NCBI GenBank assembly: GCA_018819285.1
Contig: JAHJQM010000010.1
Span: 10,930-74,929 of the forward strand
Direction: 5' to 3'
DNA: 64,000 nt
Origin: Candidatus Omnitrophota bacterium
GTDB lineage: Bacteria; Omnitrophota; Gorgyraeia; Gorgyraeales; Gorgyraeaceae
Shown here: positions 2,672 through 57,253 of the stretch, one piece after another
How the letters are laid out: each line of letters opens with the position of its first letter
Numbering within the stretch: the stretch's first letter is position 1
Program-made: the position numbers and the translations under genes
Notes under the pieces: model-generated
The model's database searches: none
Told to the model about the DNA's origin: nothing
Seen by the model: only the letters and a program-made list of their open reading frames with translations

Positions 2672-3595
2672 ATGATAGACTATATTAAAAAAGCTTATAA
2701 ATTAATGGAATCGTGCAGGCTTTGTCCGCGTAAATGCGGAGTTGATAGATTGAAGGGCCAGACGGGATTCTGTAAAGCAGGGAAGTTGCCGATGGTTTCA
2801 AGTTTTCACGCTCATTTTGGCGAAGAGCCTCCAATCTCAGGCAGGAACGGCTCAGGTACGATATTTTTTACGCATTGCAGTCTCAGGTGCGTATTCTGTC
2901 AGAATAATCCTATAAGCCAGTTAGGCCAGGGCAAAGAAACAAGCGCAGAAGAACTAGCAGTCATGATGCTGAGATTACAGACAGAAGGCTGCCATAATAT
3001 AAATTTTGTAACGCCTACTCACTATATACCGCAGATGTTGGAAGCGATATTTATTGCAAGAGATAAGGGTTTGAAAGTTCCATTAGTTTATAATTGCGGC
3101 GGATATGAATCAGTAGAGGCCCTGGAGATTTTAGACGGGATAATTGATATATATATGCCAGATATGAAATATTCCGACAATACATCAGCTAAAAAATATT
3201 CAAATGCCCCGGATTATTTTGAGGTTAATAAAATTGCAGCAAAAGAGATGTACAGACAAGTAGGAGGTTTAAAGATGTATAGAGGCATTGCGAATAAAGG
3301 AATTTTGATAAGGCACCTTGTATTGCCTGAGGATTTAGCTGGCAGTCAGAAAATATTTGAATTTATCGCTAATGAGTTATCGCCAGATACATATGTTAAT
3401 ATAATGGCGCAATATTATCCGTGCCATTCAGCAAATAAATTTCCAGAAATAGACCGCAGGATCACTGCCAGAGAATACATAGAAGCGATCAAATTAGCTG
3501 AAAAAGCAGGCCTCAAAAACGGCTTCAGGCAGGTTATGAGTACTATAAAACGCAAACGTATCCCAGAATGGACTGACAACCTGAAAATAAGTTGA
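2672..3595 (+). CDS. radical SAM protein, PflX family (COG1313, putative activating enzyme)
   Basis: CPRKCGVDR…GFC N-terminal Cys cluster. GEEPPISGRNGSGTIFFTHCSLRCVFCQN radical-SAM motif. Confidence 0.75.
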   Translation: MIDYIKKAYKLMESCRLCPRKCGVDRLKGQTGFCKAGKLPMVSSFHAHFGEEPPISGRNGSGTIFFTHCSLRCVFCQNNPISQLGQGKETSAEELAVMMLRLQTEGCHNINFVTPTHYIPQMLEAIFIARDKGLKVPLVYNCGGYESVEALEILDGIIDIYMPDMKYSDNTSAKKYSNAPDYFEVNKIAAKEMYRQVGGLKMYRGIANKGILIRHLVLPEDLAGSQKIFEFIANELSPDTYVNIMAQYYPCHSANKFPEIDRRITAREYIEAIKLAEKAGLKNGFRQVMSTIKRKRIPEWTDNLKIS

Positions 3596-3622
3596 CACTC
3601 TAACATTGTCAGAGTGTCAACT
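3589..3622 (+). repeat. REP-like 35-bp palindromic hairpin element, copy A (AAGTTGACACTCTAACATTGTCAGAGTGTCAACTT)
   Basis: Seen in sequence. The TGA inside AGTTGAC is the stop codon of the upstream radical-SAM gene. One of 7 near-identical copies in the window. Confidence 0.9.
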
Positions 3623-5707
3623 TATAGGATGATGGGTATGAAAGATTTAAATATTTCTGCAAGATTTGTTAAGGGCGTCGGGCCTTCCAGGTTAAGTACA
3701 TTGAGCCATCTAGGCATAGAGACTATATATGACCTTCTTTATTGTTTTCCGCGCAGGCATGAGGACAGGAGCAGGATCAAGAAGATAACTGAGATAAGGC
3801 CTGGAAATTTTGAAACAATAAAAGTAAAGGTGCTTACCTTTGGAGACCGCATGTCAAAAAAAGGCATGAGTATATTTCAAGTGGCTGTCGGAGATTCTAC
3901 CGGGGTAGTTCACGCTACATGGTTCAATCAGCCGTATATGAAAGATAAATTTAAAATAGGCCAGGAATTGATTTTATATGGAAAGGTGGAAAAATATAAT
4001 TATCTGCAGATAAATAATCCTGAATACGAAATCTTAACTGGCACAAAAGAAGATTTTGTACATATAGCGAGAATTGTGCCTGTATACCCGCTTACTGAAA
4101 GTTTGAACCAGCGATGGTTCAGAAATATTATGAAATTTACAGTGGATAATTATGTGGACGAGGTTAGAGAGATATTGCCGTTTGAGATGCGCAAAAGAAA
4201 CAATCTCATGATACTTAAAGAAGCTGTGAGAAATATCCATTTTCCAGTGAGTGATTTGGTTCTGAAAAAAGCCAGGGAAAGGATTATATTTGACGAGTTT
4301 ATGATATTACAGACAGGTATTGCGTTAAAAAGAGCTAGTATCAAGATAGATTTGAGCGGTTATAGCCATAAATTGGAAGGCGACCTGATAGGCAAATTTA
4401 AAAATAATATGCCGTTTCAATTAACAAAAAGCCAGTCAAAGGTGATAAGAGAAATAGAAGAAGACATGAAGAGCCAAAAGCCGATGAATAGGCTTATACA
4501 GGGAGATGTTGGCAGTGGGAAAACAATAGTGGCTTTATATGCGCTTATTCTGACTGTTCAAAATGGATACCAGGGCGCTTTGATGGTTCCCACAGAGATA
4601 CTCGCAGAGCAGCATTATAGAAATATAAAGACATTGATAAAGCCTCTTGGAATAAATGTAATGCTTTTATCGGGAGATTTAAAAGAAGAAGAGCGCAGGC
4701 GCAGGCGGCAGATGATAGAAACAGGCGAGGCAGATATTATCATAGGCACTCATGCCCTTATTCAAGAAGGAGTCAATTTTAAAAAATTAGGCCTTGCAGT
4801 AATAGACGAACAGCACAAATTCGGAGTCATGCAAAGGGCAATATTAAAATCAAAATCACAAAATCCAGATATACTTGTTATGACAGCGACTCCTATACCA
4901 AGAACTCTGGCATTGACTGTTTATGGAGATATGGATGTGTCAACAATAGACGAATTGCCTCCTGGTAGAGGCGGCGTCAAGACGTTTTTCTTCGAAGAAA
5001 AAAATAGAGACAAAGCTTATAAGATCGCAGAAGAGGAAATAAAAATAGGCAGGCAAGTTTATATAGTTTATCCTATCATAGATGAATCAGAGAAATCAGA
5101 TTTGAGAGCAGCTATTAAGATGCATAAAGATCTGAGCCAGCGTTTTACTGATTTAAAAATAGGGCTTTTGCATGGAAGGATGAAATCAAAAGAAAAAGAG
5201 ACGGTAATGTGCGATTTTAAAGACCGTAAAATAGATATGCTGGTTTCAACCGTAGTTATAGAAGTAGGCGTGGATATCAGCAATGCCAGCGTGATGATTA
5301 TAGAGCATGCCGAAAGATTCGGGCTTAGCCAACTGCATCAATTAAGAGGTAGAATTGGAAGAGGTAAGCACATATCTTACTGCATATTAGTCAGCGAACC
5401 AAAGACAGATGATGCAAAACACAGGTTAAGCGCTATGCTGAATACCCAAGATGGTTTTAAGATAGCGGAAGCTGATCTTGAAATCAGAGGGCCTGGAGAA
5501 TTTTTCGGCACAAAGCAGCATGGCCTTCCTGAATTGAAGATAGCCAATATAGTAAGGGACAGGGATCTGTTAGAACTTGCTAAAGCAGAGGCATTTGATT
5601 TAATTAAAAGAGACAGGTTTTTAAGATTACCTGAAAACAGATTGATAAGAGATAGCCTTTTGTCTAAATTTAGCAAGGAAGACTTAGAACTGGCTTCAGT
5701 AGGATAA
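3614..5707 (+). CDS. recG: ATP-dependent DNA helicase RecG
   Basis: Wedge domain, DEAH-type helicase motifs (GDVGSGKT, DEQH) and a C-terminal helicase domain; 697 aa. Confidence 0.9.
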   Translation: MSTYRMMGMKDLNISARFVKGVGPSRLSTLSHLGIETIYDLLYCFPRRHEDRSRIKKITEIRPGNFETIKVKVLTFGDRMSKKGMSIFQVAVGDSTGVVHATWFNQPYMKDKFKIGQELILYGKVEKYNYLQINNPEYEILTGTKEDFVHIARIVPVYPLTESLNQRWFRNIMKFTVDNYVDEVREILPFEMRKRNNLMILKEAVRNIHFPVSDLVLKKARERIIFDEFMILQTGIALKRASIKIDLSGYSHKLEGDLIGKFKNNMPFQLTKSQSKVIREIEEDMKSQKPMNRLIQGDVGSGKTIVALYALILTVQNGYQGALMVPTEILAEQHYRNIKTLIKPLGINVMLLSGDLKEEERRRRRQMIETGEADIIIGTHALIQEGVNFKKLGLAVIDEQHKFGVMQRAILKSKSQNPDILVMTATPIPRTLALTVYGDMDVSTIDELPPGRGGVKTFFFEEKNRDKAYKIAEEEIKIGRQVYIVYPIIDESEKSDLRAAIKMHKDLSQRFTDLKIGLLHGRMKSKEKETVMCDFKDRKIDMLVSTVVIEVGVDISNASVMIIEHAERFGLSQLHQLRGRIGRGKHISYCILVSEPKTDDAKHRLSAMLNTQDGFKIAEADLEIRGPGEFFGTKQHGLPELKIANIVRDRDLLELAKAEAFDLIKRDRFLRLPENRLIRDSLLSKFSKEDLELASVG

Positions 5708-5744
5708 ACAACTGTGCTCAAGACCAGGTCTTGAGCACAGTTGT
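5708..5744 (+). repeat. perfect 17-bp-stem palindrome ACAACTGTGCTCAAGAC-CAG-GTCTTGAGCACAGTTGT (family 2, copy 1); likely recG terminator
   Basis: Seen in sequence immediately after the recG stop. Shares a 20-nt core with the element at 47789-47834. Confidence 0.85.
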
Positions 5745-5760
5745 TAGAAAGTAAATAGAT

Positions 5761-7785: not shown

Positions 7786-7852
7786 TAATTCCTTAGCTAA
7801 TTTACACCCGCTAAAGTTCTTTGACGGGTGTAAATTCAGAGGTGACTATACA
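7786..7852 (+). promoter_or_regulatory. conserved 5' leader cassette L1, copy 1: TTAATTCCTTAGCTAATT + 10-bp-stem hairpin (TTTACACCCG…CGGGTGTAAA) + AAATTCAGAGGTGACTATACA, then TTG start of ackA
   Basis: Seen in sequence. The same flanking motifs recur at 21901-21983 and 52021-52099. Confidence 0.7.
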
Positions 7853-8896
7853 TTGTTAATTCTTGTTTTAAATAGCGGGAGTTCTTCAATAAAATACAAG
7901 CTTTTTGATATTCAAGTTAGTTCGGAAAGGCTTTTGGATAAAGGGCTTTTAGAGAGGATAGGAGAAAAGATCCCTAGCCATAAAGAGGCTATTAATATTA
8001 TATTAGATAAGGCAGGGTCTAAGATAGATGCTGTGGGCCACAGGGTTGTGCATGGAGGCGACAGATTCAAGGAGTCTATTTTAATAGATGATAATGTTAT
8101 AAAAGCGATAGAGGATTTTATTGAACTGGCGCCGCTGCATAATCCGCCAAGCCTATTGACAATAAATGAATCGAGGAAAATACTCTCAAATATTCCCCAT
8201 GTGGCTGTATTTGATACAGCTTTTTATTATGACATGCCTGAGTATGCGTATTTTTATGCGATCCCCTATAAATTTTATGAAAAGTATAAGATTCGTAAAT
8301 ATGGTTTTCATGGAACCAGCCACAGATATGTATCTGAACAGGCAGAGCGTCTTTTAAAGAAGCCTTTAAATGAACTCAAGCTTATTACATGTCACCTTGG
8401 GAATGGGTGCAGCATAACCGCTGTAAAAAACGGCAAGGCAATTGATACAAGCATGGGTTTTACTCCTCTAGAAGGCCTTGTGATGGGCACGCGTTCAGGC
8501 GATCTGGACCCGGCTATCATACCTTATATAATGGAAAAAGAAAATATAGATGTAAATGCAGTTATGGATATTCTAAATAAAAAAAGCGGACTTTTAGGTA
8601 TTTCCGGGTTAAGCAACGACATGCGTGAACTGATGAAAGAAAAAGGCGCAAATAAAAAAGCAAAATTGGCGTTGGATATTTTTATTTACAGGATAAAAAA
8701 ATATATAGGTGCTTATATGGGCGTAATGTCAGGATGCGATGCAGTGATTTTCACAGGGGGCATAGGAGAGAATAACCCAGGCCTTATTGAGGAAATTTGT
8801 AAAGGCGTCGTTTCAAAGGAGACAAAGACCCTGGTGATTCCTACAGACGAAGAATTGATGATTGCCCGGGACACCTATCGCATTGCAGTAAGTTGA
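7853..8896 (+). CDS. ackA: acetate kinase (TTG start)
   Basis: LVLNSGSSSIKYKLF N-terminus and a C-terminal …VIPTDEELMIARDT… motif. TTG start 8 nt after a GAGGTGA Shine-Dalgarno. Confidence 0.85.
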   Translation: MLILVLNSGSSSIKYKLFDIQVSSERLLDKGLLERIGEKIPSHKEAINIILDKAGSKIDAVGHRVVHGGDRFKESILIDDNVIKAIEDFIELAPLHNPPSLLTINESRKILSNIPHVAVFDTAFYYDMPEYAYFYAIPYKFYEKYKIRKYGFHGTSHRYVSEQAERLLKKPLNELKLITCHLGNGCSITAVKNGKAIDTSMGFTPLEGLVMGTRSGDLDPAIIPYIMEKENIDVNAVMDILNKKSGLLGISGLSNDMRELMKEKGANKKAKLALDIFIYRIKKYIGAYMGVMSGCDAVIFTGGIGENNPGLIEEICKGVVSKETKTLVIPTDEELMIARDTYRIAVS

Positions 8897-8924
8897 CACT
8901 CTGACATTGTCAAAGTGTCAACTT
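8890..8924 (+). repeat. REP-like palindromic hairpin element, copy B
   Basis: AAGTTGACACTCTGACATTGTCAAAGTGTCAACTT followed by ATTTTG. Its internal TGA terminates ackA. Confidence 0.9.
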
Positions 8925-8935
8925 ATTTTGAAAAT

Positions 8936-11684: not shown

Positions 11685-12613
11685 AAAATATTTGCTTTAT
11701 TTTTCCGGGGCAAGGGTCGCAGTATGTTGGAATGGGAAAAAAACTGTATGATAATTCTCCGGAAGCAAAGGCTATATTTGACCAGGCAGAAAAAATTTTA
11801 CCAGGATTAGATCTGAAGAAGCTCTGTTTTGAAGGCCCGATCGAAGAATTGACACAGACGGCAAATAGTCAAGTTGCGATTTTAACTGCGAGCATAGCTG
11901 CATTACAGGCCTTAGGCTCCGATCTCAAGCCTGTTTTTTGCGCTGGATTAAGCCTGGGAGAATACAGCGCTTTGGTTGCAAGCGGAGTTTTAGAATTTTC
12001 AGATGCTATCCGGCTAGTGAGACGAAGAGGGGAATTAATGGAACAGGCAGCTTTAAATAATCCAGGAACCATGGCGTCTATACTTGGAATTTTCGTAGAA
12101 GATCTGAAAGAAATCTGTAAAAAGACAGACTCTGAGATAGCAAATCTAAATTGTCCGGGACAGATAGTTATATCAGGAAAAAAAGAATCTGTTCAAAAAG
12201 CCATGGCCCTGGCTGAGCAAAAAGGCGCTAAAAAGGCAATTATATTAAATGTAAGCGGGCCTTTTCATTCTTCATTTATGAAAGAAGCTGCAGAGGAGTT
12301 TAAAAAAGAGCTTGGTAAAACAAGATTTTCCAGCCCTAAAGTCTCTATTATAAGCAATGTAACAGCTGATTGTGAAAACAGAGTGGAGTTCATAAAAGAA
12401 AACCTTGTGAAACAATTATACAGCCCTGTGAGATGGGAAGAGTCTATATTGAAAATCAGCCAAGAAGGCTGCGATACGTTTTTTGAGATAGGGCCTGGAA
12501 AGGTGCTAAAAGGGCTTTTGCGTAGAATAAATCCGGAATTAACAGTTTATAATATAGAAACTATAGAAGATATAAAAAACCTTATTTCTATCCCGATCGA
12601 CAAACGGAATTAA
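11678..12613 (+). CDS. fabD: malonyl-CoA:ACP transacylase
   Basis: FPGQGSQYVGMG and GLSLGEYSAL active-site motifs; 311 aa. Confidence 0.9.
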   Translation: MVKNICFIFPGQGSQYVGMGKKLYDNSPEAKAIFDQAEKILPGLDLKKLCFEGPIEELTQTANSQVAILTASIAALQALGSDLKPVFCAGLSLGEYSALVASGVLEFSDAIRLVRRRGELMEQAALNNPGTMASILGIFVEDLKEICKKTDSEIANLNCPGQIVISGKKESVQKAMALAEQKGAKKAIILNVSGPFHSSFMKEAAEEFKKELGKTRFSSPKVSIISNVTADCENRVEFIKENLVKQLYSPVRWEESILKISQEGCDTFFEIGPGKVLKGLLRRINPELTVYNIETIEDIKNLISIPIDKRN

Positions 12614-21728: not shown

Positions 21729-21763
21729 ATGTTACAAAACAAGTCATACTCGTTTTGTAACAT
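21729..21763 (+). repeat. 35-bp palindrome ATGTTACAAAACAAGTCATACTCGTTTTGTAACAT (P3, copy 1)
   Basis: Seen in sequence. 11-bp arms with a conserved 13-nt centre. A second copy lies at 22231-22265. Confidence 0.85.
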
Positions 21764-21777: not shown

Positions 21778-21806
21778 TACTTGACATTTTGCATATCATG
21801 GTATAT
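21778..21806 (+). promoter_or_regulatory. candidate sigma70-type promoter TTGACA-N17-TATACT
   Basis: Seen in sequence (…cctatacTTGACAttttgcatatcatggtaTATACT…). Lies between the P3 palindrome and the MerR-like gene. Confidence 0.4.
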
Positions 21807-21858
21807 ACTTACTCTCTAAATGGAGAGTAAGCTATCGCTGTCTATATGGATAGTTGTA

Positions 21859-21893
21859 AGTTTACACTCTAACATTGTCATGGTGTAAACTTA
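21859..21893 (+). repeat. REP-like palindromic hairpin element, copy C (variant AAGTTTACAC…GTGTAAACTT with compensatory T/A pair)
   Basis: Seen in sequence. The G:C to T:A double change keeps the stem intact. Confidence 0.85.
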
Positions 21894-21900: not shown

Positions 21901-21983
21901 TTAATTCCTTAGCCAATTGCGCGTCAGCTGCTTCACTTTGCGAAGTAAAGTAGCGGGAGAGAAATTCAGAGGTGATTATACAT
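21901..21983 (+). promoter_or_regulatory. 5' leader cassette L1, copy 2 (TTAATTCCTTAGCCAATT … AAATTCAGAGGTGATTATACA + TTG)
   Basis: Seen in sequence. Confidence 0.7.
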
Positions 21984-22222
21984 TGGAAAAGATATATTTG
22001 ATAAAAGACTTAGCAAGATTGAGCGGGCAGACAGTTTACACGCTTAAATATTATCTGAATATCGGGCTTATTAAGGAGGTCGCTAGAAGCCCTGAGACTA
22101 ATTTTAGGTATTTTGATGATACTACATTAGAAAGATTAAAGAGAATCAGGGAATTGCGTAAAGAGAATAAGTCAATAGCAGAGATAAAAGATATTTTGGG
22201 TTTGACCACTTCAATCGCGTAG
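21984..22222 (+). CDS. MerR-family helix-turn-helix transcriptional regulator (DNA-binding domain only, ~79 aa; TTG start)
   Basis: LIKDLARLSGQTVYTLKYYLNIGLI…RYF is a MerR HTH signature. The TTG lies 8 nt after GAGGTGA, as in ackA. The 21917 ORF in the track reads through the leader. Confidence 0.6.
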
Positions 22223-22230: not shown

Positions 22231-22265
22231 ATGTTACAAAATAAGTCATACTAGTTTTGTAACAT
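22231..22265 (+). repeat. 35-bp palindrome ATGTTACAAAATAAGTCATACTAGTTTTGTAACAT (P3, copy 2)
   Basis: Seen in sequence, between the MerR-like stop and the gspA Shine-Dalgarno, followed by AAGAGGTTTTTTA. Confidence 0.85.
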
Positions 22266-28749: not shown

Positions 28750-28784
28750 TAAGTTGACAAACTAACATTGTCAGAGTGTAAACT
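28750..28784 (+). repeat. REP-like palindromic hairpin element, copy D (degenerate: AAGTTGACAAACTAACATTGTCAGAGTGTAAACTT)
   Basis: Seen in sequence directly after the etfB stop. Confidence 0.7.
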
Positions 28785-28806
28785 TTGGCTAAGCGGAAAA
28801 AGTGTT

Positions 28807-30015
28807 ATGTCAATCAAAGTCATCAATGAAAAATGCGTTGGATGTAAATTATGTGTCAAGTCCTGCCCGTTCGGCGCAATAGAGATCATCAATAAAAAGG
28901 CAGTCATAGACCTTGATAAATGTACATTGTGCGGAGCGTGTATAGAATCGTGCAAGTTTGACGCCATTGTACTTACTAAGCTCAGCCCAACAGACATACA
29001 ATTTCCTAAGAAATTCGATGAATATAAAGATGTGTGGGTATTCTGCGAACAGAAAAAAGGCGTTGTACAAAGCGTTGCATATGAACTTTTGGGCAAAGGA
29101 AGAGAGCTTAGCGATACGCTTGGGAATGAATTGTGCGGAGTTTTATTAGGCGAAAATATGAAGGAGGAAGCGCATAAGATTATTCATAGAGGCGCCGACA
29201 AGGTATATCTTGTGGATTCTCCTGCGTTAAAACATTATCAGGATGAGCCATATTCAAAGGTATTAATTCAATTAATAAAAGAATATAAGCCTGAGATAGT
29301 GCTTTGCGGAGCTAGTTCGACAGGCAGGTCGTTGATATCGCGGGTTGCGATAGGCATTCATGCGGGCCTTACGGCGGATTGTACAGGCCTTGATATAGAT
29401 AAAAAAGAAAGACTTCTATTACAAACCAGGCCTGCATTCGGCGGGAATATTATGGCTACTATTATCTGCCCCAATCACAGGCCTCAGATGTCAACTGTAA
29501 GACACAAGGTAATGAAAGAAGCTGCTGAAAATAAACATCATAAAGGAAAGATCATAGAAAAAAGTTACGACAGTAATATTTATTTTTCTAGAACGAAGCT
29601 TCTTGATATTGTGGAAGAGATAGAGGAGACAGTTAATTTAACAGAGGCAAACGTGATTGTTTCCGGCGGAAGGGGTATGCAATCCCCGGAGAATTTTAAA
29701 CTTATTGAAGGCCTGGCAAAGGCTCTGGGCGGCGCTGTGGGAGCATCGCGCGCTGCAGTTGACAGCGGCTGGAAAACTTATTCGCACCAGGTTGGACAGA
29801 CAGGAAAAACAGTTTGCCCAAAGATTTACATAGCCTGTGGCATCTCTGGCCAGATACAGCATCTTGTGGGCATGCAGTCTTCAGAGATAATAGTAGCGAT
29901 AAATAAAGACCCTTATGCGCCCATATTCAGTGTGGCGACCTATGGGATAGTTGGGGATGTATTTGAAGTTGTACCGGAGCTAACCAGACAATTTAAAGAG
30001 GCGTTAAAAAGATAA
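28807..30015 (+). CDS. etfA: electron transfer flavoprotein alpha subunit with N-terminal 2x[4Fe-4S] ferredoxin domain
   Basis: CVGCKLCVKSCP and CTLCGACIESC ferredoxin motifs, then an ETF-alpha FAD-binding domain. ATG at 28807; the ORF opens at TTG 28768 inside the REP element. Confidence 0.85.
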   Translation: MSIKVINEKCVGCKLCVKSCPFGAIEIINKKAVIDLDKCTLCGACIESCKFDAIVLTKLSPTDIQFPKKFDEYKDVWVFCEQKKGVVQSVAYELLGKGRELSDTLGNELCGVLLGENMKEEAHKIIHRGADKVYLVDSPALKHYQDEPYSKVLIQLIKEYKPEIVLCGASSTGRSLISRVAIGIHAGLTADCTGLDIDKKERLLLQTRPAFGGNIMATIICPNHRPQMSTVRHKVMKEAAENKHHKGKIIEKSYDSNIYFSRTKLLDIVEEIEETVNLTEANVIVSGGRGMQSPENFKLIEGLAKALGGAVGASRAAVDSGWKTYSHQVGQTGKTVCPKIYIACGISGQIQHLVGMQSSEIIVAINKDPYAPIFSVATYGIVGDVFEVVPELTRQFKEALKR

Positions 30016-34823: not shown

Positions 34824-34828
34824 CATAT

Positions 34829-34948
34829 AATCTTCGGGAGAGGGTGAAATTCCCCACCGGCGGTACAGTCCGCGAGCTCTCATAAAAGAGGGCAGACTTG
34901 GTGCGATTCCAGGACCGATTGTGAAAGGCTAGATGGTAGAAGATAAGT
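34829..34948 (+). ncRNA. FMN riboswitch (RFN element) aptamer
   Basis: TCTTCGGGAGAGGGTGAAATTCCCCACCGGCGGTA … AGAGGGCAGACTTGGTGCGATTCCAGGACCGATTGTGAAAGGCTAGATGG matches the conserved RFN core; upstream of ribBA. Confidence 0.85.
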
Positions 34949-38058: not shown

Positions 38059-39162
38059 ATGAAAAGACATGAATTTTTTATGAGAAAGGTTTTGGATCTG
38101 GCTGAAAAAGGAAAAAGTACTACCAGCCCTAATCCTATGGTAGGCGCGTTGGTCGTAAAGAATGGGAAAATTATAGCAAGCGCTTATCATAGACGGCCAG
38201 GAGGCCTGCACGCAGAGGCTATCGCGCTAAAAAGAATTGGCCAGAAAGCAAGAGGCGCGACGCTTTATGTGAATCTTGAGCCATGCGCCCATTTAGGAAG
38301 AACGCCTCCATGCTCAAAGGCAATTATAAAAAGCGGGATAAAAGAGGTTTATTGCTCAATGATTGACCCAAATCCTTTGAATAATGGAAAAGGCAAAAAG
38401 GAATTAGAGAAAAATGGCGTTAACGTTAGAGTGGGGATTTTAGCTAAAGAAGCAGCAAAGTTAAACGAAGTTTTTATAAAATATGTTACAAAGAAGATGC
38501 CTTTTGTGACAATAAAGGTTGCCGAGTCTCTAGACGGCAAGATAGCTACAAAGACAATGGATTCCAAATGGATTACAGCGGATGAGTCCAGAGATTATTC
38601 GCACAGGCTGCGCAGCGAGATGGATGCTGTGCTTGTGGGCGTGAATACAATAATGAGAGATAACCCTATCCTGACTTCAAGAAAGAATAAATCACCTATA
38701 AAGATTGTGCTAGATTCAAATCTAAGGGTTCCTGAAAGCGCAAAGATTTTTTCAAAGGAATCTCCGGCGCTGAATATAGTGGCAATCCTGAGAAAGTCAT
38801 TAAAGGTCTCGCATATATTAAAAAAAGTGGAGAGATTTAATAAAAAAGGAATTCTCATTATAGCGTGCCCTGGCAAGAATAACAGGATTAACCTGGAATG
38901 GCTTTTAAAAGAGCTGGCAGAACTTGAGATCAGCCGCTTATTAGTAGAAGGCGGAGGAGATACTATAGCAGGATTTTTAGAGCAAGACTTTGTAGATAAG
39001 GCCTTATTTTTCATAGCCCCAAAGATTATAGGCGGCAGAAATGCAGTGACTTCTGTTGAAGGCAGGGGCGTAGAGAAAGTAAGGCAGGCCATAGAACTGA
39101 AAGACATGAAAGTTAAAATGCTTGGCGAAGATATTTTAGTAAGCGGCAGGCCGGTAAGTTGA
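38059..39162 (+). CDS. ribD: bifunctional riboflavin biosynthesis deaminase/reductase RibD
   Basis: CMP/dCMP-type deaminase zinc motif (HAEAIAL … PCAHLGRTPPC) plus a RibD_C reductase domain; 367 aa. Confidence 0.9.
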   Translation: MKRHEFFMRKVLDLAEKGKSTTSPNPMVGALVVKNGKIIASAYHRRPGGLHAEAIALKRIGQKARGATLYVNLEPCAHLGRTPPCSKAIIKSGIKEVYCSMIDPNPLNNGKGKKELEKNGVNVRVGILAKEAAKLNEVFIKYVTKKMPFVTIKVAESLDGKIATKTMDSKWITADESRDYSHRLRSEMDAVLVGVNTIMRDNPILTSRKNKSPIKIVLDSNLRVPESAKIFSKESPALNIVAILRKSLKVSHILKKVERFNKKGILIIACPGKNNRINLEWLLKELAELEISRLLVEGGGDTIAGFLEQDFVDKALFFIAPKIIGGRNAVTSVEGRGVEKVRQAIELKDMKVKMLGEDILVSGRPVS

Positions 39163-39211
39163 CACTCTGACATTGTCAGAGTGTCAACTTACAATGTCAG
39201 AGTGTCAACTT
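39156..39211 (+). repeat. REP-like palindromic hairpin element, copy E, with an extra duplicated half-site (1.5 copies)
   Basis: AAGTTGACACTCTGACATTGTCAGAGTGTCAACTT followed by ACAATGTCAGAGTGTCAACTT. Its internal TGA terminates ribD. Confidence 0.9.
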
Positions 39212-47139: not shown

Positions 47140-47781
47140 ATGGCTGACATTTTAAAATCTATACGAAGTTATTTTGAGATGGAAAGGGAAAACGGTATAT
47201 CCGAATATCTTTTTTCATCCAAGTCAAAGGATATCCAGCTGTCTTTGGTTAAAAACCAAGTATTGAATTGCCAGAAATGTCCGTTGGGAAAGATGCGGAC
47301 AAATAGCGTATTTGGTTCAGGCAATATAAACGCAAAGCTCGTATTTGTCGGAGAGGCGCCTGGCCGTGACGAAGATATACAAGGCATACCTTTTGTAGGA
47401 GAGGCCGGCATGCTTCTCACAAAAATAATAGAGGCAATGGGCATTAAAAGAGACGATGTTTATATTTGTAATATTTTAAAATGCCGGCCACCACAAAATA
47501 GAAATCCATTGCCAGAAGAAATCTCTATATGCATAGACTATCTTTACGCTCAGATAGATATGATAAAGCCAAAGATAATATGCGGGCTTGGAAAATTTGC
47601 CAGCCAGACCCTTCTCGGAACAGAGGCGCCTATAAGTAAGCTCAGAGGCAACTGGCGCGAATATAGAGGAATAAAATTTATGCCTACATATCATCCCGCA
47701 TATCTTCTGCGTAATCCCGGGGATAAGAAATTGGTATGGGGAGATATGAAAAAGATAATAGAAGCGTTGAAAGACCACTAA
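47140..47781 (+). CDS. uracil-DNA glycosylase, family 4
   Basis: CxxCPL…, GEAPG and PFVGxAG motifs; 213 aa. Confidence 0.8.
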   Translation: MADILKSIRSYFEMERENGISEYLFSSKSKDIQLSLVKNQVLNCQKCPLGKMRTNSVFGSGNINAKLVFVGEAPGRDEDIQGIPFVGEAGMLLTKIIEAMGIKRDDVYICNILKCRPPQNRNPLPEEISICIDYLYAQIDMIKPKIICGLGKFASQTLLGTEAPISKLRGNWREYRGIKFMPTYHPAYLLRNPGDKKLVWGDMKKIIEALKDH

Positions 47782-47788
47782 TGGAGAA

Positions 47789-47834
47789 GACCAGGACTTG
47801 AGCACAGTAATTGCTGTGCTCAAGACCTGGTCTT
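47789..47834 (+). repeat. 20-bp-stem palindrome AGACCAGGACTTGAGCACAG-TAATTG-CTGTGCTCAAGACCTGGTCT (family 2, copy 2)
   Basis: Seen in sequence between udg and priA. Shares its core with 5708-5744. Confidence 0.85.
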
Positions 47835-47842
47835 GTGAAGAG

Positions 47843-49846
47843 ATGTATGCAGATATAGTTATTAACCGGCCCATAGAAAGGCCTTTTACATATTCTATCC
47901 CGGAATCTCTTAAGGAGGATATTAAGATAGGGAGTATAGTAGAGGTGTCTTTTGGAAACAAGGTAGTTACGGGTTATGTGGTAGGGCTTTCTGATGAATG
48001 CGACATAGAAAAAATTAAGCCTATAAATAGTATTTTTGATAAAACCCTGTGTGTAGATTCCAAGATGCTGGAGCTTACAAAATGGATTTCAACGTATTAT
48101 TATTCTTCCTGGGGAGAGTCGATCTCAGCAGCTATTCCCAGCGTTCTTAAAAAAGGCGCCTCCGGGAAAAGACAAAGAAAAGAAAAACACAATGAAGAAG
48201 AAAAGGAGTTTGAATTTATAGACGGCTCTGATAAGCATCTTATGCCCAATGAAGAACAAAAGCTCGCGCTCGATTGCATAACGAATTCAATAGATGCCAG
48301 GATTCACAGGGTTTTTCTTCTGCATGGCGTAACAGGAAGCGGAAAAACAGAGGTTTATCTTCAATCAATAGCCCATGCCTTAGAGCTCGGGCTTTCCAGC
48401 ATAATACTTGTTCCTGAGATTTCGCTTACGCCGCAGACCGTAGCGCGCTTCAAAGCAAGATTCGGGGATAAAATAGCAGTATTGCATTCAAGGCTTCTCG
48501 GGTCCAAGCGTATTTCTGAATGGCATAGAATAAGTTCAGGCGCAGCCCAGATTGTTATAGGGCCGCGCTCAGCTGTATTTGCGCCTCTTAAAAATCTAGG
48601 GCTGATAGTCGTAGACGAGGAACACGAGACATCTTATAAACAGGAGGATGTGCCCAGGTATAACGCAAGGGACGTGGCAATAAAAAGGGCGGAGCTTTCA
48701 AAAGCTATTGTAATACTGGGGAGCGCCACCCCGTCATTAGAATCTTTTTATGCAGCTAAAAATGGAAAATTTACTCTTATAGAACTCCCTGAAAGGATAG
48801 ATTCCAGGCTTTTACCGGCAGTAGATATAGTAGACATGCGGGAGGAGATGACAAGGGCCAAGAAGATCCCTATATTTTCGCAGAAACTTAAAGAATGGAT
48901 AGAGAAGGATATAGCTGAGAAAAAACAGGTCATACTTTTTTTAAATAGGCGCGGCTTCTCAACATTCATAAATTGCAGAAAATGCGGATATGTCATTAAA
49001 TGCAAACGCTGCAGCGTCAGCCTCACGTATCATTTTGATAAGAAAAAACTTGTGTGCCACCATTGTAATTTTAATATGGCTCCTCCTGAAATCTGTCCTG
49101 AATGTAACGCTAGCTATTTAAAATACTGGGGCCTTGGCACAGAAAAGGTTGAAAGCGAAGCCCACAGGCTTTTTCCGCAAGCCTCTATAGCGCGCATGGA
49201 TACTGACGCTACCCACAAGCGCGGCGCGCACAATAAGATACTTTTAAAGTTTAAAGACGCTCATCTGGATATTCTAATAGGCACTCAGATGATAGCCAAA
49301 GGCCTGGATTTTCCAAAGGTTACGCTTGTCGGAGTTATATCAGCTGACACAGCTTTAAATCTTCCTGATTTCAGGTCAGCTGAGCGCACATTTAATTTAT
49401 TGACGCAAGTTGCAGGCCGCGCTGGAAGGGGCGATCTGGGAGGCAGGGTAATAATACAGAGTTATACGCCTGGGCATTATTCAATCCAGGCATCTAAAAA
49501 TCATGATTACAATACGTTTTACGACAAAGAGATATCACTGCGAAAAGAACTATATCTTCCGCCATTCTGCCATATGGTTAGCTTGACCCTTAGGGGCAGA
49601 AAAGAAGAAAGGGTTTTTAAGGCAAGCTATAATTTAAAGTCCAGCCTTGAAAAAGAAACAAAATCTAAAAATATAGAAATCTTAGGGCCTGCGCCTGCTC
49701 CGATTTCAAAGATGAAGGGCATGTACAGGTGGAGCATATTTTTAAGGTCAGAAACCGCAGGAGATATTACATCTATTTTGAAAAAGGCGCTGGATAAGAA
49801 TAAAAACTCAGGAATTATTATAACAGTGGATGTGGACCCGTCTTAA
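47843..49846 (+). CDS. priA: primosomal protein N' (PriA helicase)
   Basis: Walker A GVTGSGKTEVY, DEEH, Cys-rich zinc region (CRKCGY…CKRC…CHHC…CPEC); 668 aa from the ATG at 47843. Confidence 0.9.
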   Translation: MYADIVINRPIERPFTYSIPESLKEDIKIGSIVEVSFGNKVVTGYVVGLSDECDIEKIKPINSIFDKTLCVDSKMLELTKWISTYYYSSWGESISAAIPSVLKKGASGKRQRKEKHNEEEKEFEFIDGSDKHLMPNEEQKLALDCITNSIDARIHRVFLLHGVTGSGKTEVYLQSIAHALELGLSSIILVPEISLTPQTVARFKARFGDKIAVLHSRLLGSKRISEWHRISSGAAQIVIGPRSAVFAPLKNLGLIVVDEEHETSYKQEDVPRYNARDVAIKRAELSKAIVILGSATPSLESFYAAKNGKFTLIELPERIDSRLLPAVDIVDMREEMTRAKKIPIFSQKLKEWIEKDIAEKKQVILFLNRRGFSTFINCRKCGYVIKCKRCSVSLTYHFDKKKLVCHHCNFNMAPPEICPECNASYLKYWGLGTEKVESEAHRLFPQASIARMDTDATHKRGAHNKILLKFKDAHLDILIGTQMIAKGLDFPKVTLVGVISADTALNLPDFRSAERTFNLLTQVAGRAGRGDLGGRVIIQSYTPGHYSIQASKNHDYNTFYDKEISLRKELYLPPFCHMVSLTLRGRKEERVFKASYNLKSSLEKETKSKNIEILGPAPAPISKMKGMYRWSIFLRSETAGDITSILKKALDKNKNSGIIITVDVDPS

Positions 49847-50991: not shown

Positions 50992-50993
50992 AT

Positions 50994-51028
50994 AAGTTGA
51001 CACTCTGACATTGTCAGAGTGTCAACTT
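50994..51028 (+). repeat. REP-like palindromic hairpin element, copy F (consensus)
   Basis: AAGTTGACACTCTGACATTGTCAGAGTGTCAACTT immediately after the def stop. Confidence 0.9.
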
Positions 51029-51053
51029 ATAATACATTAATTCATAGGGGACT

Positions 51054-51992
51054 ATGCATTTGAAAATAATATTTTTCGGCAGCTCAAATTTTGCTGTACC
51101 TATATTAGAGGCACTTGCTAAGAACGAGAATATTGTTCTTGTGATTACGCAGCCAGACAGGCAAAAAGGCAGGTCTCTTAAGATAGCGCCTACAGCGGTA
51201 AAATCAAAAGCCGGAGAACTTAGGATTGAAACGTTTCAGCCTGTAAGAGTAAATTCCAAGGAATCCATAGAATTTCTTAAAAAATTTAATGCGGATTTGT
51301 TTATTGTAGCAAGCTTTGGCCAGATACTTTCGAAATTAGTACTGAGTTTACCAAAATTATATTGCCTGAATATCCATGCCTCGCTTTTACCGAAATATAG
51401 AGGGGCGGCTCCTATAAACTGGGCTATTGCTAATGGAGAAAAAGAGACAGGCGTAACCATTATGCGCATGAATGAAAAAATGGATGAAGGGGATGTTGTT
51501 CTTAAGGAAATATTGCCTGTAAGCGAACAGGATAACGCTGTTACATTATCCGAAAAACTTTCTATAAAAGGCGCAAATATTTTATTGGATACTATAAGGT
51601 TAATAAGAAACAATGAAGTTGAATTTATAGCGCAGGATCATAGTAAGGCAACTTATGCGCCTAAATTAAAAAAAGAAGACGGCCTGATTAACTGGGCTAA
51701 TAGCGCTGATGAAATCTGCAATAGAATCAGGGCTTTTACGCCATGGCCAGGATGTTTTATCTCGCTGGATAAAAAAATACTTAAGATATGGAAGGCAGGG
51801 CCAATTACGGATTTGATTGATAAAAAGTCAATGCCTGGCACAATATTAGGAGTCAGTAAAAATGGCATACTGGTTAAAACAGGGAAAGGGGCTTTAAAAA
51901 TAGAAGAGCTTCAATTAGAAAGTTCGCGAAGAATGACTGCAAAAGAATTTATAGCCGGTCACAAAAATTTTTCTTGCATAAATAATTTTTAA
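51054..51992 (+). CDS. fmt: methionyl-tRNA formyltransferase
   Basis: Formyl-transferase N domain (HASLLPKYRG) plus C-terminal domain; 312 aa; conserved def-fmt gene order. Confidence 0.9.
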   Translation: MHLKIIFFGSSNFAVPILEALAKNENIVLVITQPDRQKGRSLKIAPTAVKSKAGELRIETFQPVRVNSKESIEFLKKFNADLFIVASFGQILSKLVLSLPKLYCLNIHASLLPKYRGAAPINWAIANGEKETGVTIMRMNEKMDEGDVVLKEILPVSEQDNAVTLSEKLSIKGANILLDTIRLIRNNEVEFIAQDHSKATYAPKLKKEDGLINWANSADEICNRIRAFTPWPGCFISLDKKILKIWKAGPITDLIDKKSMPGTILGVSKNGILVKTGKGALKIEELQLESSRRMTAKEFIAGHKNFSCINNF

Positions 51993-52020: not shown

Positions 52021-52099
52021 TGGGAGTATATTAATTCCTTAACCAATTTTGCCCAGCCGCTATGTGAAGCGACTGGCAAAATTCAGTGGTGACTATACA
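52021..52099 (+). promoter_or_regulatory. 5' leader cassette L1, copy 3 (TTAATTCCTTAACCAATT … imperfect hairpin … AAATTCAGTGGTGACTATACAT + ATG)
   Basis: Seen in sequence. Confidence 0.7.
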
Positions 52100-53129
52100 T
52101 ATGCCAGAATTAAGACGAGATCCTGTAATAGGAAGATGGGTTATAATATCTACTGAGAGGGCTAAAAGGCCGAGCGATTTTAACATCAAGCATGCGGATG
52201 AACCAGAAATGGAATGTCCTTTTTGCGAAGGCCATGAAAAAAAGACGCCTACAGAAATATTTGCAATAAGAAAACCAGGCACAAAAAAAGATACCCCAGG
52301 CTGGAACGTGAGGGTTGTGCCCAGCATAGCTCCGAAATTCAAGATAGAAGGGGAACTTGAGAGGCGCGGAGCTGGGATGTATGATGTTATGAATAATATA
52401 GGCGCCCATGAAGTGCTAATAGAGTCCCCTAAGCACCTTACTGATATATATCAATTATCAGAACTTGAAATACAAGATGTAATTAATGCTTCTATCTATC
52501 GCATCAGCGAACTCGAAAAAGACATTCGTTTTAAATATTGCCTTTTATTTAAAAATCACGGATTGAAAGCAGGAGGCAGTAAGAAAACAAAACACCTCAG
52601 GTCTCAGCTTATCGCAACGCCTGTTACGCCTACAAGAGTCAAAGAGGAACTCAGGGGCTCCATGTTTTATTTCGAATATAAAGAAAGGTGTATTTTCTGC
52701 GACATTATACGCCAGGAAATAGAAACAGGCGCAAGGATCATAATGGAGACAAAAACCATTGTGGCAATTGCGCCTTTTGCTTCAAGGTTTCCTTTTGAGA
52801 TATGGATAATGCCTAAAATTCACAGGGCAGATTTTATGAATATACAGGCTGATGAAATAAAAGATCTGGCAAATGTTTTAAAGACAGTATTTGCTAAACT
52901 TTCAAAGATATTGAACGACCCACCATATAATTATATGCTGCATACAGCTCCTTTCAGGCGGACAAGAAGACCTGGATATTGGCATACGATAGAAGAGGAT
53001 TATCATTGGCATATTGAAGTTATGCCAAGGATAACGCAGGTAGCTGGTTTTGAGTGGGGTTCAGGATTTTACATAAATCCTACTCCTCCGGAAGAAGCGG
53101 CAAAGCATTTACGTGAGGTAATTTTATAA
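52100..53129 (+). CDS. galactose-1-phosphate uridylyltransferase-like protein (HIT superfamily); active-site HxHxQ replaced by H-L-R-S-Q
   Basis: RDPVIGRWVIIS N-terminus and CPFCEGHE zinc motif. Paralog of the next gene; the second (nucleophilic) His is Arg. Confidence 0.7.
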
Positions 53130-55295: not shown

Positions 55296-55470
55296 CATGA
55301 CTTACGGAGTCCGAAGGACGACATAAGTCATATGTCCGAACTTATCCTCGCCATTTTGCGGGGGATTTGAACAAACTAGAAGCCGGTTATTTTAATGTAC
55401 TACGCAAAATGGCAAGGATTAATTCGCGCATTGACTTACGTTCACTCGCTATGCTCGTTCCGTAAGTCAA
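55296..55470 (+). other. ~175-nt intergenic region with nested long-range inverted repeats (GACTTACGGAG…TTCCGTAAGTC; CTCGCCATTTTGCG…CGCAAAATGGCAAGG; local hairpins)
   Basis: Seen in sequence; no ORF. Candidate structured RNA or regulatory region. Confidence 0.4.
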
Positions 55471-55481
55471 GCGCTCACTAA

Positions 55482-56159: not shown

Positions 56160-56812
56160 TGATGGCTATAGAAGTAGTCCTGGCGGATGACCATGCGATA
56201 GTAAGACAGGGCTTAAGCGCTGTGATATCTCAGGAACAAGATATAAAGGTTATCAAAGAGGCGTCAAATGGTAAAGAGGTTGTGGATATTGCAAAGAATG
56301 CTTCAGTGGATATATTCATAATTGATATAACCATGCCTATATTAAATGGCCTTGAGGCCTCAAGCCAGATAATGCAGATTAACCCAAGGAATAAAGTAAT
56401 TATACTAAGCATGCATGATAATAGGGCATTTATAGAGAGGGCTTTAAGCCTGGGAATAAAAGGGTATGTGTTAAAAGATTCAGCAGCCGATGAGATTATT
56501 CAGGCCATACGAGTAGTTTACAAGAATGAATATTTTCTTAGTCCTAGGATATCCACATTTGTAATACAGGATTACATTGATTCAAGAGGCCAGAAGATAG
56601 GAGAAAAAAAGATAGTCAGTCTTACTGGGAGAGAAAGAGAGGTTCTTCAACTTATTGCAGAAGGCTATATAAATAAGGAAGTTGCGACACATCTTAAGAT
56701 TTCTTTAAAGACCGCGCTTGCCCACAGAAATAATATAATGCAGAAACTCGGGATACACCGCCAAGCAGACCTCATTAAATATGCACTCAAAGAAGGTATA
56801 ACCACTATATAG
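56159..56812 (+). CDS. response regulator, NarL/FixJ family (REC + LuxR HTH)
   Basis: VLADDH…D phosphoacceptor region. C-terminal LTGREREVLQLIAEGYINKEVA…SLKTALAHRNNIMQKLG. Confidence 0.85.
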   Translation: MMAIEVVLADDHAIVRQGLSAVISQEQDIKVIKEASNGKEVVDIAKNASVDIFIIDITMPILNGLEASSQIMQINPRNKVIILSMHDNRAFIERALSLGIKGYVLKDSAADEIIQAIRVVYKNEYFLSPRISTFVIQDYIDSRGQKIGEKKIVSLTGREREVLQLIAEGYINKEVATHLKISLKTALAHRNNIMQKLGIHRQADLIKYALKEGITTI

Positions 56813-56944
56813 TAACCACTATATATTGTATAGGAAAAAAAGCTCTCTAAAGTAGGTAGTTATACCTATTTACAGATGCTGGGCTTTCTGGTATCATTTG
56901 GGCTCACGCGATTGGTGTCATACGCCAAAAAAAAGGAGGGGGAA

Positions 56945-57220
56945 ATGGCTATTAAGAAATGTTCGTCAAAAAAGGTGATTTTTAAGATAAGCGCGCCAAC
57001 TGCAAAGGATGTGCGCCTGGCAGGAGATTTTAATTCATGGGATGCATCTAGAGCCAATCTTAAAAAATCTAAAGATGGAGTATGGACAAGAGATTTGACC
57101 CTTAAGTCTGGACGTTATGAGTATAAATATTTAATTGACGGCCAATGGCAGAGAGACCCTTTAAATAATCTTTTCATAGTAAACGCTTTCGGTTCAGAAA
57201 ATTCAGTAATCGAGTTATAA
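56945..57220 (+). CDS. stand-alone CBM48/AMPK-beta-like glycogen-binding-module protein (~91 aa)
   Basis: VIFKISAPTAKDVRLAGDFNSWD…GVW…L…G.YEYKYLIDGQW matches CBM48. ATG at 56945 preceded by AAGGAGGGGG; the ORF opens at 56876. Confidence 0.55.
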   Translation: MAIKKCSSKKVIFKISAPTAKDVRLAGDFNSWDASRANLKKSKDGVWTRDLTLKSGRYEYKYLIDGQWQRDPLNNLFIVNAFGSENSVIEL

Positions 57221-57253
57221 GTTTACACTCTGACATTGTCAAAGTGTAAACTT
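57219..57253 (+). repeat. REP-like palindromic hairpin element, copy G (TTTACAC/GTGTAAA variant)
   Basis: AAGTTTACACTCTGACATTGTCAAAGTGTAAACTT. The TAA of the conserved ATAAGTT terminates the CBM48 gene. Confidence 0.9.

Follow-up and report, generated by a model that had tools for sequence, protein, structure and literature searches.

Why does the same 37-nucleotide palindrome recur between genes seven times within 64 kb of bacterial DNA, and why do several of the genes upstream of it take their stop codon from it? The stretch concerned comprises 64,000 nucleotides of a Candidatus Omnitrophota bacterium (GenBank assembly GCA_018819285.1, contig JAHJQM010000010.1, positions 10,930 to 74,929 of the forward strand) and is referred to throughout as the window. 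An initial annotation, made from the letters alone, had likened the element to the repetitive extragenic palindromes (REPs) of other bacteria, a description that we uphold, and had recommended a search for a REP-associated tyrosine transposase (RAYT). That search was positive: a RAYT gene, bracketed by copies of the palindrome, is found in the same assembly and in related genomes. We consider it likely that the element is a REP-type, non-autonomous palindromic repeat belonging to a REP/RAYT system in one clade of Candidatus Omnitrophota; its position at the ends of genes may be a consequence of where copies can be tolerated.

Results

A repeat family maintained as a hairpin

Statistics on the anatomy of the element refer to a set of 79 copies, drawn from four related genomes and each oriented according to the genes on either side. 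The consensus is a palindrome of 37 nt, T-AAGTTGACACTCTGACA-W-TGTCAGAGTGTCAACTT-A, one base pair longer on each side than the 35-nt core that had been recognised at first; the additional T...A pair is present in 63% of copies, and the position beyond it (-2/+2) is random. The corresponding hairpin has a stem of 17-18 bp, a tip of 3 nt and T-AAG / CTT-A at its foot. In the window, pattern searches and a profile hidden Markov model (HMM) built from the 79 copies find seven full copies and one partial duplicate of 21 nt, in agreement with the initial annotation, where none is expected by chance (0 matches in 100 shuffles). A strict search with the 35-mer at up to three mismatches returns cores at 3589, 8890, 39156, 50994 and 57219, and looser searches add 21858, 28751 and the arm at 39191-39211; five of the starting positions given previously are thus correct, while 21859 and 28750 each move by one base, to 21858 and 28751. 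Neither the profile HMM nor the looser pattern search detects isolated half-sites, solitary arms or copies within gene bodies in the window, and overlap with genes is limited to the last codons or the stop. DNA uptake sequences, short motifs that occur singly within and between genes and only in part as inverted pairs, were rejected because the window has no solitary arms. TTGACA in each arm resembles a -35 box, but there is no -10 box at a workable spacing, and a promoter was rejected as well.

Watson-Crick pairing holds in 94.8% of stem cells, compared with 88.1% in shuffles and approximately 30% in slid registers, and the covariation score of 0.144 (0.044 in shuffles) is reached by none of 500 shuffles; the proposal that the hairpin itself is maintained is borne out by these figures. 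The inner stem and loop, ACACTCTGACA-W-TGTCAGAGTGT, with 11 bp in the inner stem, is nearly invariant, and nearly all stem variation falls at positions 3, 4 and 6. Double changes are exclusively G:C<->T:A transversions, which pass through no wobble intermediate. Among them is the exchange of TTGAC/GTCAA for TTTAC/GTAAA at 21858 and 57219, previously interpreted as compensatory and found here to be real. Mismatches on the sense strand are A·C in 17 cases and G·U in three, an asymmetry that is the opposite of that expected of a sense-RNA helix and that follows the purine skew of the coding strand; the idea of selection on a sense-strand RNA hairpin is not sustained by this record.

Apart from its central base, the palindrome has no strand. 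All seven window copies have T at the centre on the + strand, so that their description as always + strand is accurate within the window, and yet it depends on a single base, which relative to the coding strand is T in 41 copies and A in 38, flips between orthologues, and is A in three of five copies on another contig of the window's assembly. On the same balance of 41 to 38, orientation by either transcription or replication was rejected. Five of the window copies fold as RNA at -20 to -28 kcal/mol, whereas the two that are partly decayed reach only -14 (21858) and -13 kcal/mol (28751); the fifth copy together with its partial duplicate can form a longer hairpin of -40 kcal/mol, and the consensus folds as DNA at -17.1 kcal/mol. 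A T-rich tail, defined as at least five T in the 8 nt past the stem, follows only four of the 79 copies. Taken together, the pairing, the covariation and the lack of polarity point to an intrastrand hairpin without polarity, which a DNA hairpin or a copying process would fit better than an mRNA element or a terminator.

A RAYT gene bracketed by the palindrome

A motif scan of approximately 550 kb of related sequence (sampled loci carry L numbers below) returned one open reading frame (ORF) with HIHLLL and YTHINPVKKGLV, at L065 3321-4217 in the metagenome-assembled genome (MAG) PEUD01. It encodes a RAYT-like HUH/Y1 tyrosine transposase of approximately 300 aa with a C-terminal helix-turn-helix (HTH). 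The protein matches Pfam Y1_Tnp at 36.3 bits (cut-off 23), and its best family is NCBIfam REP_Tyr_transpos (57-63 bits, E = 1e-15 to 2e-17, model positions 7-146 of 146), the NCBIfam IS200 model scoring 16-19 bits on the same protein. Its motifs are NH[IL]H, F in place of W, and YIHxNP, followed by a C-terminal domain resembling HTH_23/HTH_28. Residues N75, H76, H78, Y135 and N139 are invariant in 37 homologues and P140 is nearly so (at least 90%); homologues, of which there are roughly 136 in all, are of approximately 300 aa with a C-terminal HTH, and nearly all of the named ones come from Omnitrophota. An AlphaFold model (mean pLDDT 77.5, core approximately 90) finds as its best Foldseek match 4ER8_A, from the RAYT-REP hairpin complex of E. 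coli, with E = 1.3e-4, a target-normalised TM-score of 0.71 and an rmsd of 2.1 Å over 138 columns, at 14% identity over the alignment; the IS608 and ISDra2 TnpA structures rank lower, with rmsd of about 6-7 Å. By sequence, phmmer against the PDB gave nothing relevant, and a profile search gave weak IS200-family matches and did not reach 4ER8. A tblastn search of plasmids returned 'transposase' matches at approximately 34% identity or less only, and left the subclass unplaced. The window itself encodes no RAYT detectable by tblastn.

In the window's assembly the RAYT locus reads thrC - REP - spacer - REP - RAYT - REP, the spacer being the assumed site of the promoter. Two upstream copies of an asymmetric variant, which folds with a 2x2 internal loop, and one copy overlapping the RAYT stop codon are found in L065, L153 and L155; L156 has three copies upstream of the gene and one approximately 25 nt past its stop, and L157 has one in the 130 nt of upstream sequence read and another on the RAYT stop. 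As only about 11% of the window's gene junctions carry a copy, such bracketing is unlikely to arise by chance. The hom-thrC genes lie upstream of the RAYT in five of five genomes, and downstream, where the locus reaches, are an XRE-type HTH gene, Tricorn_N and a giant protein. Identity among the RAYTs of the genomes sharing this synteny is approximately 64-79% to that of the window's genome and 59-99% to that of PEUD01. Judged from sequence, the gene appears to be single-copy (one ORF in the sampled DNA), vertically inherited and not itself mobile. With a more divergent RAYT comes a different flanking palindrome, namely AACAACTTGACATTTTAACAATGTTAAAGTGTCAAGTTGTT in L157 (RAYT 59% identical to the PEUD01 query) and one of the AACTTGAC.../...GTAAAGTT type in L156 (69%), which shows that REP and RAYT change together.

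The connection with the window is as follows. The RAYT designated P0136 (MBU1328375.1; L153) lies on contig k141_38198 of ENA assembly ERZ27247117, run SRR6514730, and the contig of the window, k141_624214 (RibE, MBU1327794.1), belongs to the same assembly and run. Five copies of the AAGTTGAC type, which is the stem type of the window's genome, are present on the RAYT contig.

Distribution and evolution of the copies

A strict scan for the core across 185,579 species, one genome for each, found 68 further stretches, in three Candidatus Omnitrophota MAGs only (PEUD01, JAGVFL01 and MNVP01). The sampled parts of two related MAGs contain approximately 55 and 37 copies. In overlapping parts the window is about 80% identical to PEUD01 and to JAGVFL01, which are about 85% identical to each other, and copies persist at orthologous junctions across this 15-20% nucleotide divergence or thereabouts. 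Each genome has its own dominant outer-stem types: AAGTTGAC in that of the window, AAGTTGAC, AAGGTGAC and AAGGTTAC in PEUD01, and AAGGTTAC and AATGTTAC in JAGVFL01. In 17 orthologous pairs, including the seventh window copy, 18 stem changes are paired and five unpaired.

An asymmetric subfamily (...TGTCAGTTTGTCAACTT; right arm ...CAGTTTGTC...) recurs at a minimum of seven non-orthologous loci. There are also differences in presence: L057 has a copy at 1665 where two genes overlap as TAATG in L034, and L162 has one at 11702 where the window's acyl-CoA dehydrogenase and etfB genes overlap. The asymmetric subfamily, these differences and the recurrent partial duplications described below support the view, anticipated by the initial annotation, that the element propagates or has been copied.

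More distant relatives have some other palindrome in the same place. At ribD|ribE, MNVP01 has AACAACTTGACAAATCAACA-A-TGTTGATTTGTCAAGTTGTT, which shares TTGACA...ACAWTGT...TGTCAA with the window family and has the inner 5 bp swapped in a compensatory manner, the versions in L151 and L150 are decayed or split, and L152 lacks one. In the leader between pilO and merR, L162 has AACAACTTTACACTTCAAACAATGTTACAAGTGTAAAGTTGTT, L161 split arms and L160 nothing. A metagenome scan with PriA for orthologous loci recovered only relatives of at most 56% identity, none with the element, and when the ackA|yceD and etfB|etfA junctions were sought in relatives through PilC homologues the pilO-merR region alone was recovered. 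Contigs of related MAGs often break at copies.

Placement and stop codons

The segment TAAGTTGACACTCTGA carries TAA, TGA and TGA, one in each frame, as can be read directly and as had been noted before. Four upstream genes in the window end inside the element: the radical-SAM gene, ackA and ribD at an internal TGA, as Ser-stop, and the CBM48 gene at a TAA built from T(-1)A1A2; the TAA of def lies upstream of the core. These details of the initial annotation were accurate, and they extend to the four genomes, where the element supplies the upstream stop in 37 of 79 copies (47%), as TAA at -1..2 in 20, as TGA at 5-7 in 12 and as TGA at 13-15 in five. A TA or TAA target duplication at these stops is not supported: among the 20 copies that use the 5' TAA stop, only two have an A following the 3' TA. 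The upstream stop is inside the element or no more than 15 nt away in 74 copies (94%), and the ribosome-binding site and start codon of the next gene usually follow within some 10-25 nt.

In the sampled DNA, copies occupy 79 of 383 co-directional junctions, two of 17 convergent and none of 21 divergent ones. Spacers that contain a copy have a median length of 55 nt and those lacking one a median of 13.5 nt; the element therefore adds approximately its own length to an otherwise minimal spacer. In the window, seven of about 64 junctions are occupied, and copies occur within operons at etfB|etfA, ribD|ribE and def|fmt. Since 61 of 65 long window ORFs lie on the + strand, the location of every copy 3' of a + strand gene largely reflects genome layout. 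The window also has a strong and uniform strand asymmetry (GC skew +0.12 to +0.29, AT skew mostly positive), and appears to lie entirely on one replichore arm with a purine-rich coding strand.

Copies in the window

Positions of the copies are given in Table 1; the identities of the genes flanking all seven were confirmed by Pfam. At Rfam gathering thresholds the window yields a flavin mononucleotide (FMN) riboswitch and a tRNA only, with no match at any copy. The second copy has a single C·A mismatch, at stem position 12 vs 24. The third lies downstream of pilO, in the conserved leader between promoter and merR. The left arm of the fourth is the ACAAAC variant that also flanks the presumed RAYT promoter, and its minimum-energy fold differs from the canonical hairpin. 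The fifth is in the rib operon downstream of the FMN riboswitch (100 bits, 34826-34948), which heads the order ribBA-ribH-nusB-PHP-ribD-[REP]-ribE and so places this copy inside a riboswitch-controlled operon. Orthologues of the seventh, at L026 1746 and L016 1547, have compensated stem variants.

Partial tandem duplications have arisen independently three times, at window 39170-39211 (21 nt), L004 3964-3991 (14 nt) and L057 1651-1678 (14 nt), with a common breakpoint between stem positions 14 and 15 (CTCTG^ACA), which may mark either a hotspot for slippage at the tip of the hairpin or the cut site of the enzyme.

Table 1. Copies of the palindrome in the window, and sites of two further repeats in related genomes
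Feature	Core	Extent or sites	Strand	Remarks
REP copy 1	3589-3623	3588..3624	.	radical-SAM gene / recG junction; upstream stop is internal TGA 3593-3595
REP copy 2	8890-8924	8889..8925	.	ackA / yceD junction; ackA stop is internal TGA 8894-8896
REP copy 3	21858-21892	21857..21893	.	partly decayed; outer-stem type AAGTTTAC
REP copy 4	28751-28785	28750..28786	.	etfB / etfA junction; asymmetric or hybrid
REP copy 5	39156-39190	39155..39191	.	ribD / ribE junction; ribD stop is internal TGA 39160-39162
Partial copy		39191..39211	.	21-nt tandem duplicate of stem positions 15-35 of copy 5; centre A, not T
REP copy 6	50994-51028	50993..51029	.	perfect palindrome; def / fmt junction; def TAA ends 2 bases 5' of core
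REP copy 7	57219-57253	57218..57254	.	CBM48 gene / GT4 glycosyltransferase junction; upstream stop is TAA 57218-57220
GTAG...CTAC family		L149 2224, 6850, 7367; L160 354; L032 (after rpmH)
Composite repeat		L009 7280, L032 5567, L004 6667, L001 724, L059 5897, L068 5334, L040 1, L021 7372, L039 7974

Neighbouring repeats

Several other repeats accompany the element. A second window palindrome, AACAACTGTGCTCAAGACC-A-GGTCTTGAGCACAGTTGTT, with a 19-bp stem, lies directly 3' of recG at 5707-5745; related arms, CTGTGCTCAAG, occur at the start of priA (47779-47846), and its feet AACAACT...AGTTGTT are shared by palindromes at the relatives' REP sites (L149 9939, L157 10972 and L162). A third, ATGTTACAAAACAAGTCATACTCGTTTTGTAACAT, brackets merR at 21729-21763 and 22231-22265, and is found in a relative after a pseudouridine synthase gene (L157 20549-20585); two readings apply, a further dispersed family or an operator of MerR. 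Upstream of merR, 21780-21857 comprises a conserved promoter (TTGACA-N17-TATACT) and, after it, a leader with two hairpins, TACTCTCTAAATGGAGAGTAAGCTATCGCTGTCTATATGGATAG; the third REP copy comes immediately 3'; promoter and leader are conserved in four genomes (window, L160, L161 and L162) and the leader has no Rfam match. A 24-nt direct repeat, AAATTCAGAGGTGAYTATACATTG, is present at 7832-7855, 21962-21985 and 52079-52102 and more weakly at 51038-51061. It provides the Shine-Dalgarno sequence, spacer and TTG start for ackA and merR, is kept at merR in MNVP01 (L160), and looks like a shared or portable translation-initiation region.

In close relatives a GTAG...CTAC family, GTAGGGACAG[C/G]ACA-W-TGT[G/C]CTGTCCCTAC, is found at ribBA|ribH, ribH|nusB and further sites (Table 1). 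The family is absent from the window, at ribBA|ribH and ribH|nusB included, the latter reading TAATATG there, which makes a clear presence/absence difference for a second REP family, one that probably has its own RAYT. In PEUD01 alone there are nine or more copies of a composite repeat of approximately 110 nt, TTGATAGCATAGGAAATTATATTAACCTTTTTAATCTCAAAATGCCCT-[REP]-AGCGATAAGACATAAGAAGATCTCTC, found where longer spacers separate terminator-like hairpins from promoters; the repeat might represent a larger mobile unit or a family of small RNA genes. Finally, L149 90-446 of MNVP01 has an additional gene of the bAvd/23S-rRNA-IVP family between etfA and smc, which abut in the window at 30015/30017.

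Discussion

How the element might work

By analogy with TnpA-REP of E. coli and TnpA of IS608, the element would act when its DNA is single-stranded and the 17-18 bp stem with its 3-nt tip can fold as a hairpin. The RAYT would recognise the invariant inner stem and loop, and would cleave and rejoin the DNA nearby, and by this cleavage and rejoining REPs would be copied, replaced or homogenised. Such an action on the hairpin would account for the joint changes of the two arms, for the strandlessness of the palindrome and for the dominance of a particular stem type in each genome. In a genome this compact, in which co-directional genes are separated by a median of 13.5 nt, copies would survive only between a stop codon and the next ribosome-binding site, and the stops in all three frames at the ends of the element would make copies that overlap the last codons or the stop tolerable. 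The apparent donation of stop codons would then be a by-product of this placement filter and not a designed function. Most plausibly, to reason from the known enzymes, the hairpin is a single-stranded-DNA structure recognised by the Y1 enzyme, a role that would also make sense of the invariant core and of the REPtron-like locus.

Other explanations

A hairpin acting mainly in mRNA, as protection from 3' exonucleases, as a site for RNase III or other processing, or as a brake on the terminating ribosome that tunes the upstream gene or its coupling to the downstream gene, would suit much of what is known of the placement. Nearly all copies separate co-directional genes, and they are transcribed within operons; in 74 of 79 the upstream stop is in the stem or at most 15 nt from it, a range over which REPs in E. 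coli cause terminating ribosomes to stall, with reduced expression (Liang et al. 2015, cited in a passage of PMC12306157); their RNA hairpins are strong, at -20 to -28 kcal/mol; and they persist at orthologous junctions, with an inner stem far more conserved than the flanks and with some palindrome kept at the same junction in more distant relatives. Set against this are a central base that is random with respect to transcription (41 to 38), G·U mismatches rarer on the sense strand than A·C (3 to 17), compensation by G:C<->T:A only, without wobble intermediates, an inner 11 bp whose sequence is invariant although structure alone would suffice for an RNA role, and a transposase gene bracketed by the same sequence. 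We regard a primarily mRNA-based function as rather unlikely. It may be a secondary role, co-opted on top of a REP/RAYT origin, and we would entertain an effect on RNA or translation of the upstream gene, as an addition and not as the origin, with similar reserve. A Rho-independent terminator or attenuator common to many genes, which had been among the original suggestions, would explain a long, stable stem directly 3' of genes, and a passage in PMC6006769 reports transcription termination by REPs in some settings. This is extremely improbable here: only four of 79 copies have five or more T within 8 nt of the stem, the base of which is AT-rich, copies sit in obligate operons (etfB|etfA, ribD|ribE with its single FMN riboswitch upstream, and def|fmt), the next ribosome-binding site and start usually come within some 10-25 nt with no promoter in between, and only two of 17 convergent junctions have a copy.

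Perfect two-fold symmetry and an invariant core are also features of a double-stranded-DNA operator, in which case the copies would be the motif of a regulon and not a mobile repeat; candidates for the dimeric regulator are the HTH of the RAYT itself and the XRE-family HTH protein encoded by its conserved neighbour, and two copies do flank the stretch upstream of the RAYT that is assumed to hold its promoter. Nevertheless, half-sites in a duplex have no need to change together, as the arms do (18 paired vs five unpaired changes), the sites are at gene 3' ends and inside operons with none at the 21 divergent, promoter-bearing junctions, and the flanking genes are functionally unrelated, such that we consider an operator very unlikely. 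A miniature inverted-repeat transposable element (MITE) derived from a DDE transposon, or an insertion-sequence (IS) terminal repeat, in either case unrelated to the Y1 enzyme, would be consistent with the frequent breaks of related MAG contigs at copies, and with ends TA...TA that could be a TA target duplication as in MITEs of the IS630/mariner type. However, the whole 37-nt element is hairpin, without internal sequence; bases at -2/+2 are random, and copies that take the 5' TAA as stop do not have the A that would follow a TA duplication. No DDE transposase or autonomous element bounded by copies turned up in the approximately 550 kb, where the searches were aimed at Y1/RAYT enzymes only, and the only gene consistently bracketed is the Y1 transposase, fixed in one syntenic place. 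We consider such an origin very unlikely.

Several observations weigh against our preferred explanation, that of a REP-type repeat served by the RAYT. The canonical GT[AG]G foot of REPs is missing, and the motifs of the RAYT resemble a subclass reported as not associated with REPs (Quentin et al. 2018, PMC6006769); the protein scores 57-63 bits against REP_Tyr_transpos, below the equivalog cut-off of 80. The RAYT and the window are on different contigs, which we assign to one genome from the shared assembly and run and from close accession numbers in nr. A copy is kept at 14 of 15 junctions comparable between PEUD01 and JAGVFL01, a proportion biased upward because loci were fetched for carrying a copy, and among the 17 orthologous pairs 41 of 578 stem positions differ, compared with 255 of 2040 in the flanks. 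Retention and slow stem divergence suggest that recent mobility is low, and that copies are conserved in place by a host function or by homogenisation. Furthermore, the search for presence/absence differences yielded no clean empty site bearing a target-site duplication, and one of the presence/absence cases (L057/L034) has diverged flanks, so that insertion itself was not observed.

There is a more speculative possibility, for which the odds seem to us poor: the REPs of this clade might be fixed punctuation marks of operons, held at the boundary between stop and ribosome-binding site and rewritten in place as the specificity of the RAYT drifts, while modulating translation termination, re-initiation or mRNA processing. 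It draws on the observation that the same junction carries each genome's own version of the palindrome. If true, an HTH-bearing RAYT from a supposedly REP-less subclass would be maintaining a genome-wide set of hairpins.

Wider meaning

As a REP/RAYT system, the element would extend such systems to Omnitrophota, an uncultured phylum outside the REP/RAYT surveys compared here, and would constitute a new pairing of an abundant REP family with an HTH-bearing RAYT that resembles, by its motifs, a REP-less subclass. The clade offers material for two questions in particular: how palindromy is kept up, given that nearly all changes are paired G:C<->T:A exchanges and that the dominant type at these loci varies from genome to genome, and how ribosomes behave when a stop codon is located inside an 18-bp stem, considering that in E. 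coli a REP no more than 15 nt from a stop stalls translation. For annotation the elements have practical consequences, in that they set the true 3' ends of many genes, break the assemblies of related MAGs, and could pass for terminators or regulatory RNAs.

Comparison with known systems

A literature search found no report of palindromic repeats in Omnitrophota. The kind of repeat is itself known, and what sets the present one apart from classic REPs is the lack of a GTAG foot, the perfect single palindrome, the HTH-bearing type of RAYT and the overlap with stop codons. As in the REP/BIME and TnpA-REP system of E. coli (4ER8), a short extragenic palindrome is repeated genome-wide, many copies are close to the upstream stop codon, and a HUH/Y1 transposase gene, present once, has its own REPs on both sides, the arrangement known as a 'REPtron'; the fold of the enzyme matches the E. 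coli RAYT best. Unlike E. coli REPs, those of the Omnitrophota clade have no 5' GTAG foot, form a perfect palindrome of 17-18 bp instead of an imperfect hairpin, and do not occur as inverted pairs, and their RAYT has approximately 300 aa with a C-terminal HTH. That 47% of upstream genes end inside the element is a further difference, not described for E. coli.

With the REPIN-RAYT systems of Pseudomonas and Enterobacteria (Bertels & Rainey; PMC3116915, PMC5581495) the clade shares the dependence of non-autonomous repeats on a RAYT that is single-copy and passed on vertically, together with long persistence and a lineage-specific 'master' sequence. A REPIN consists of two REPs with a spacer, as a doublet (PMC3116915, PMC5581495), whereas the Omnitrophota unit is a single palindrome with a one-base centre, and the host phylum and the RAYT subclass differ as well. 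No REPIN-like doublets were found, the three partial tandem duplicates being the only multiples seen; the palindrome may nevertheless be equivalent to a collapsed REPIN doublet.

Symmetric hairpins with a foot at both ends, the 'double-foot' REPs, are known with TnpA-REP subclass 2.4 in Cyanobacteria and Bacteroidetes (Quentin et al. 2018, PMC6006769). The window family is likewise fully symmetric, but its feet are TAAG/CTTA and not GT[AG]G/C[TC]AC, and the enzymes differ in their motifs, subclass 2.4 having NH[IFV]H, WQ and YIxNNP where the Omnitrophota RAYT has NH[IL]H, F for W, YIHxNP and an HTH. The second palindrome family of close relatives, GTAGGGACAGCACA-W-TGTGCTGTCCCTAC, fits the 'double-foot' description exactly. 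By motifs and architecture (NHxH, F for W, Y[IV]HxNP, HTH), the Omnitrophota RAYT seems closest to TnpA-Y1 subclass 2.1, Bertels group 1 or 'TIRYT'. Subclass 2.1 genes are reported to have no REP-like sequences nearby (Quentin et al. 2018, PMC6006769), and for group 1 RAYTs low-abundance flanking 16-mers only were reported (Bertels et al.); in contrast, the Omnitrophota gene is bracketed by an abundant REP, and its placement in this subclass is by motif only. With the IS200/IS605 family (IS608, ISDra2) the system shares HUH/Y1 chemistry and the recognition of subterminal DNA hairpins, at weaker structural and profile matches, but its transposase does not travel as a mobile unit between hairpins and is instead fixed in one syntenic locus.

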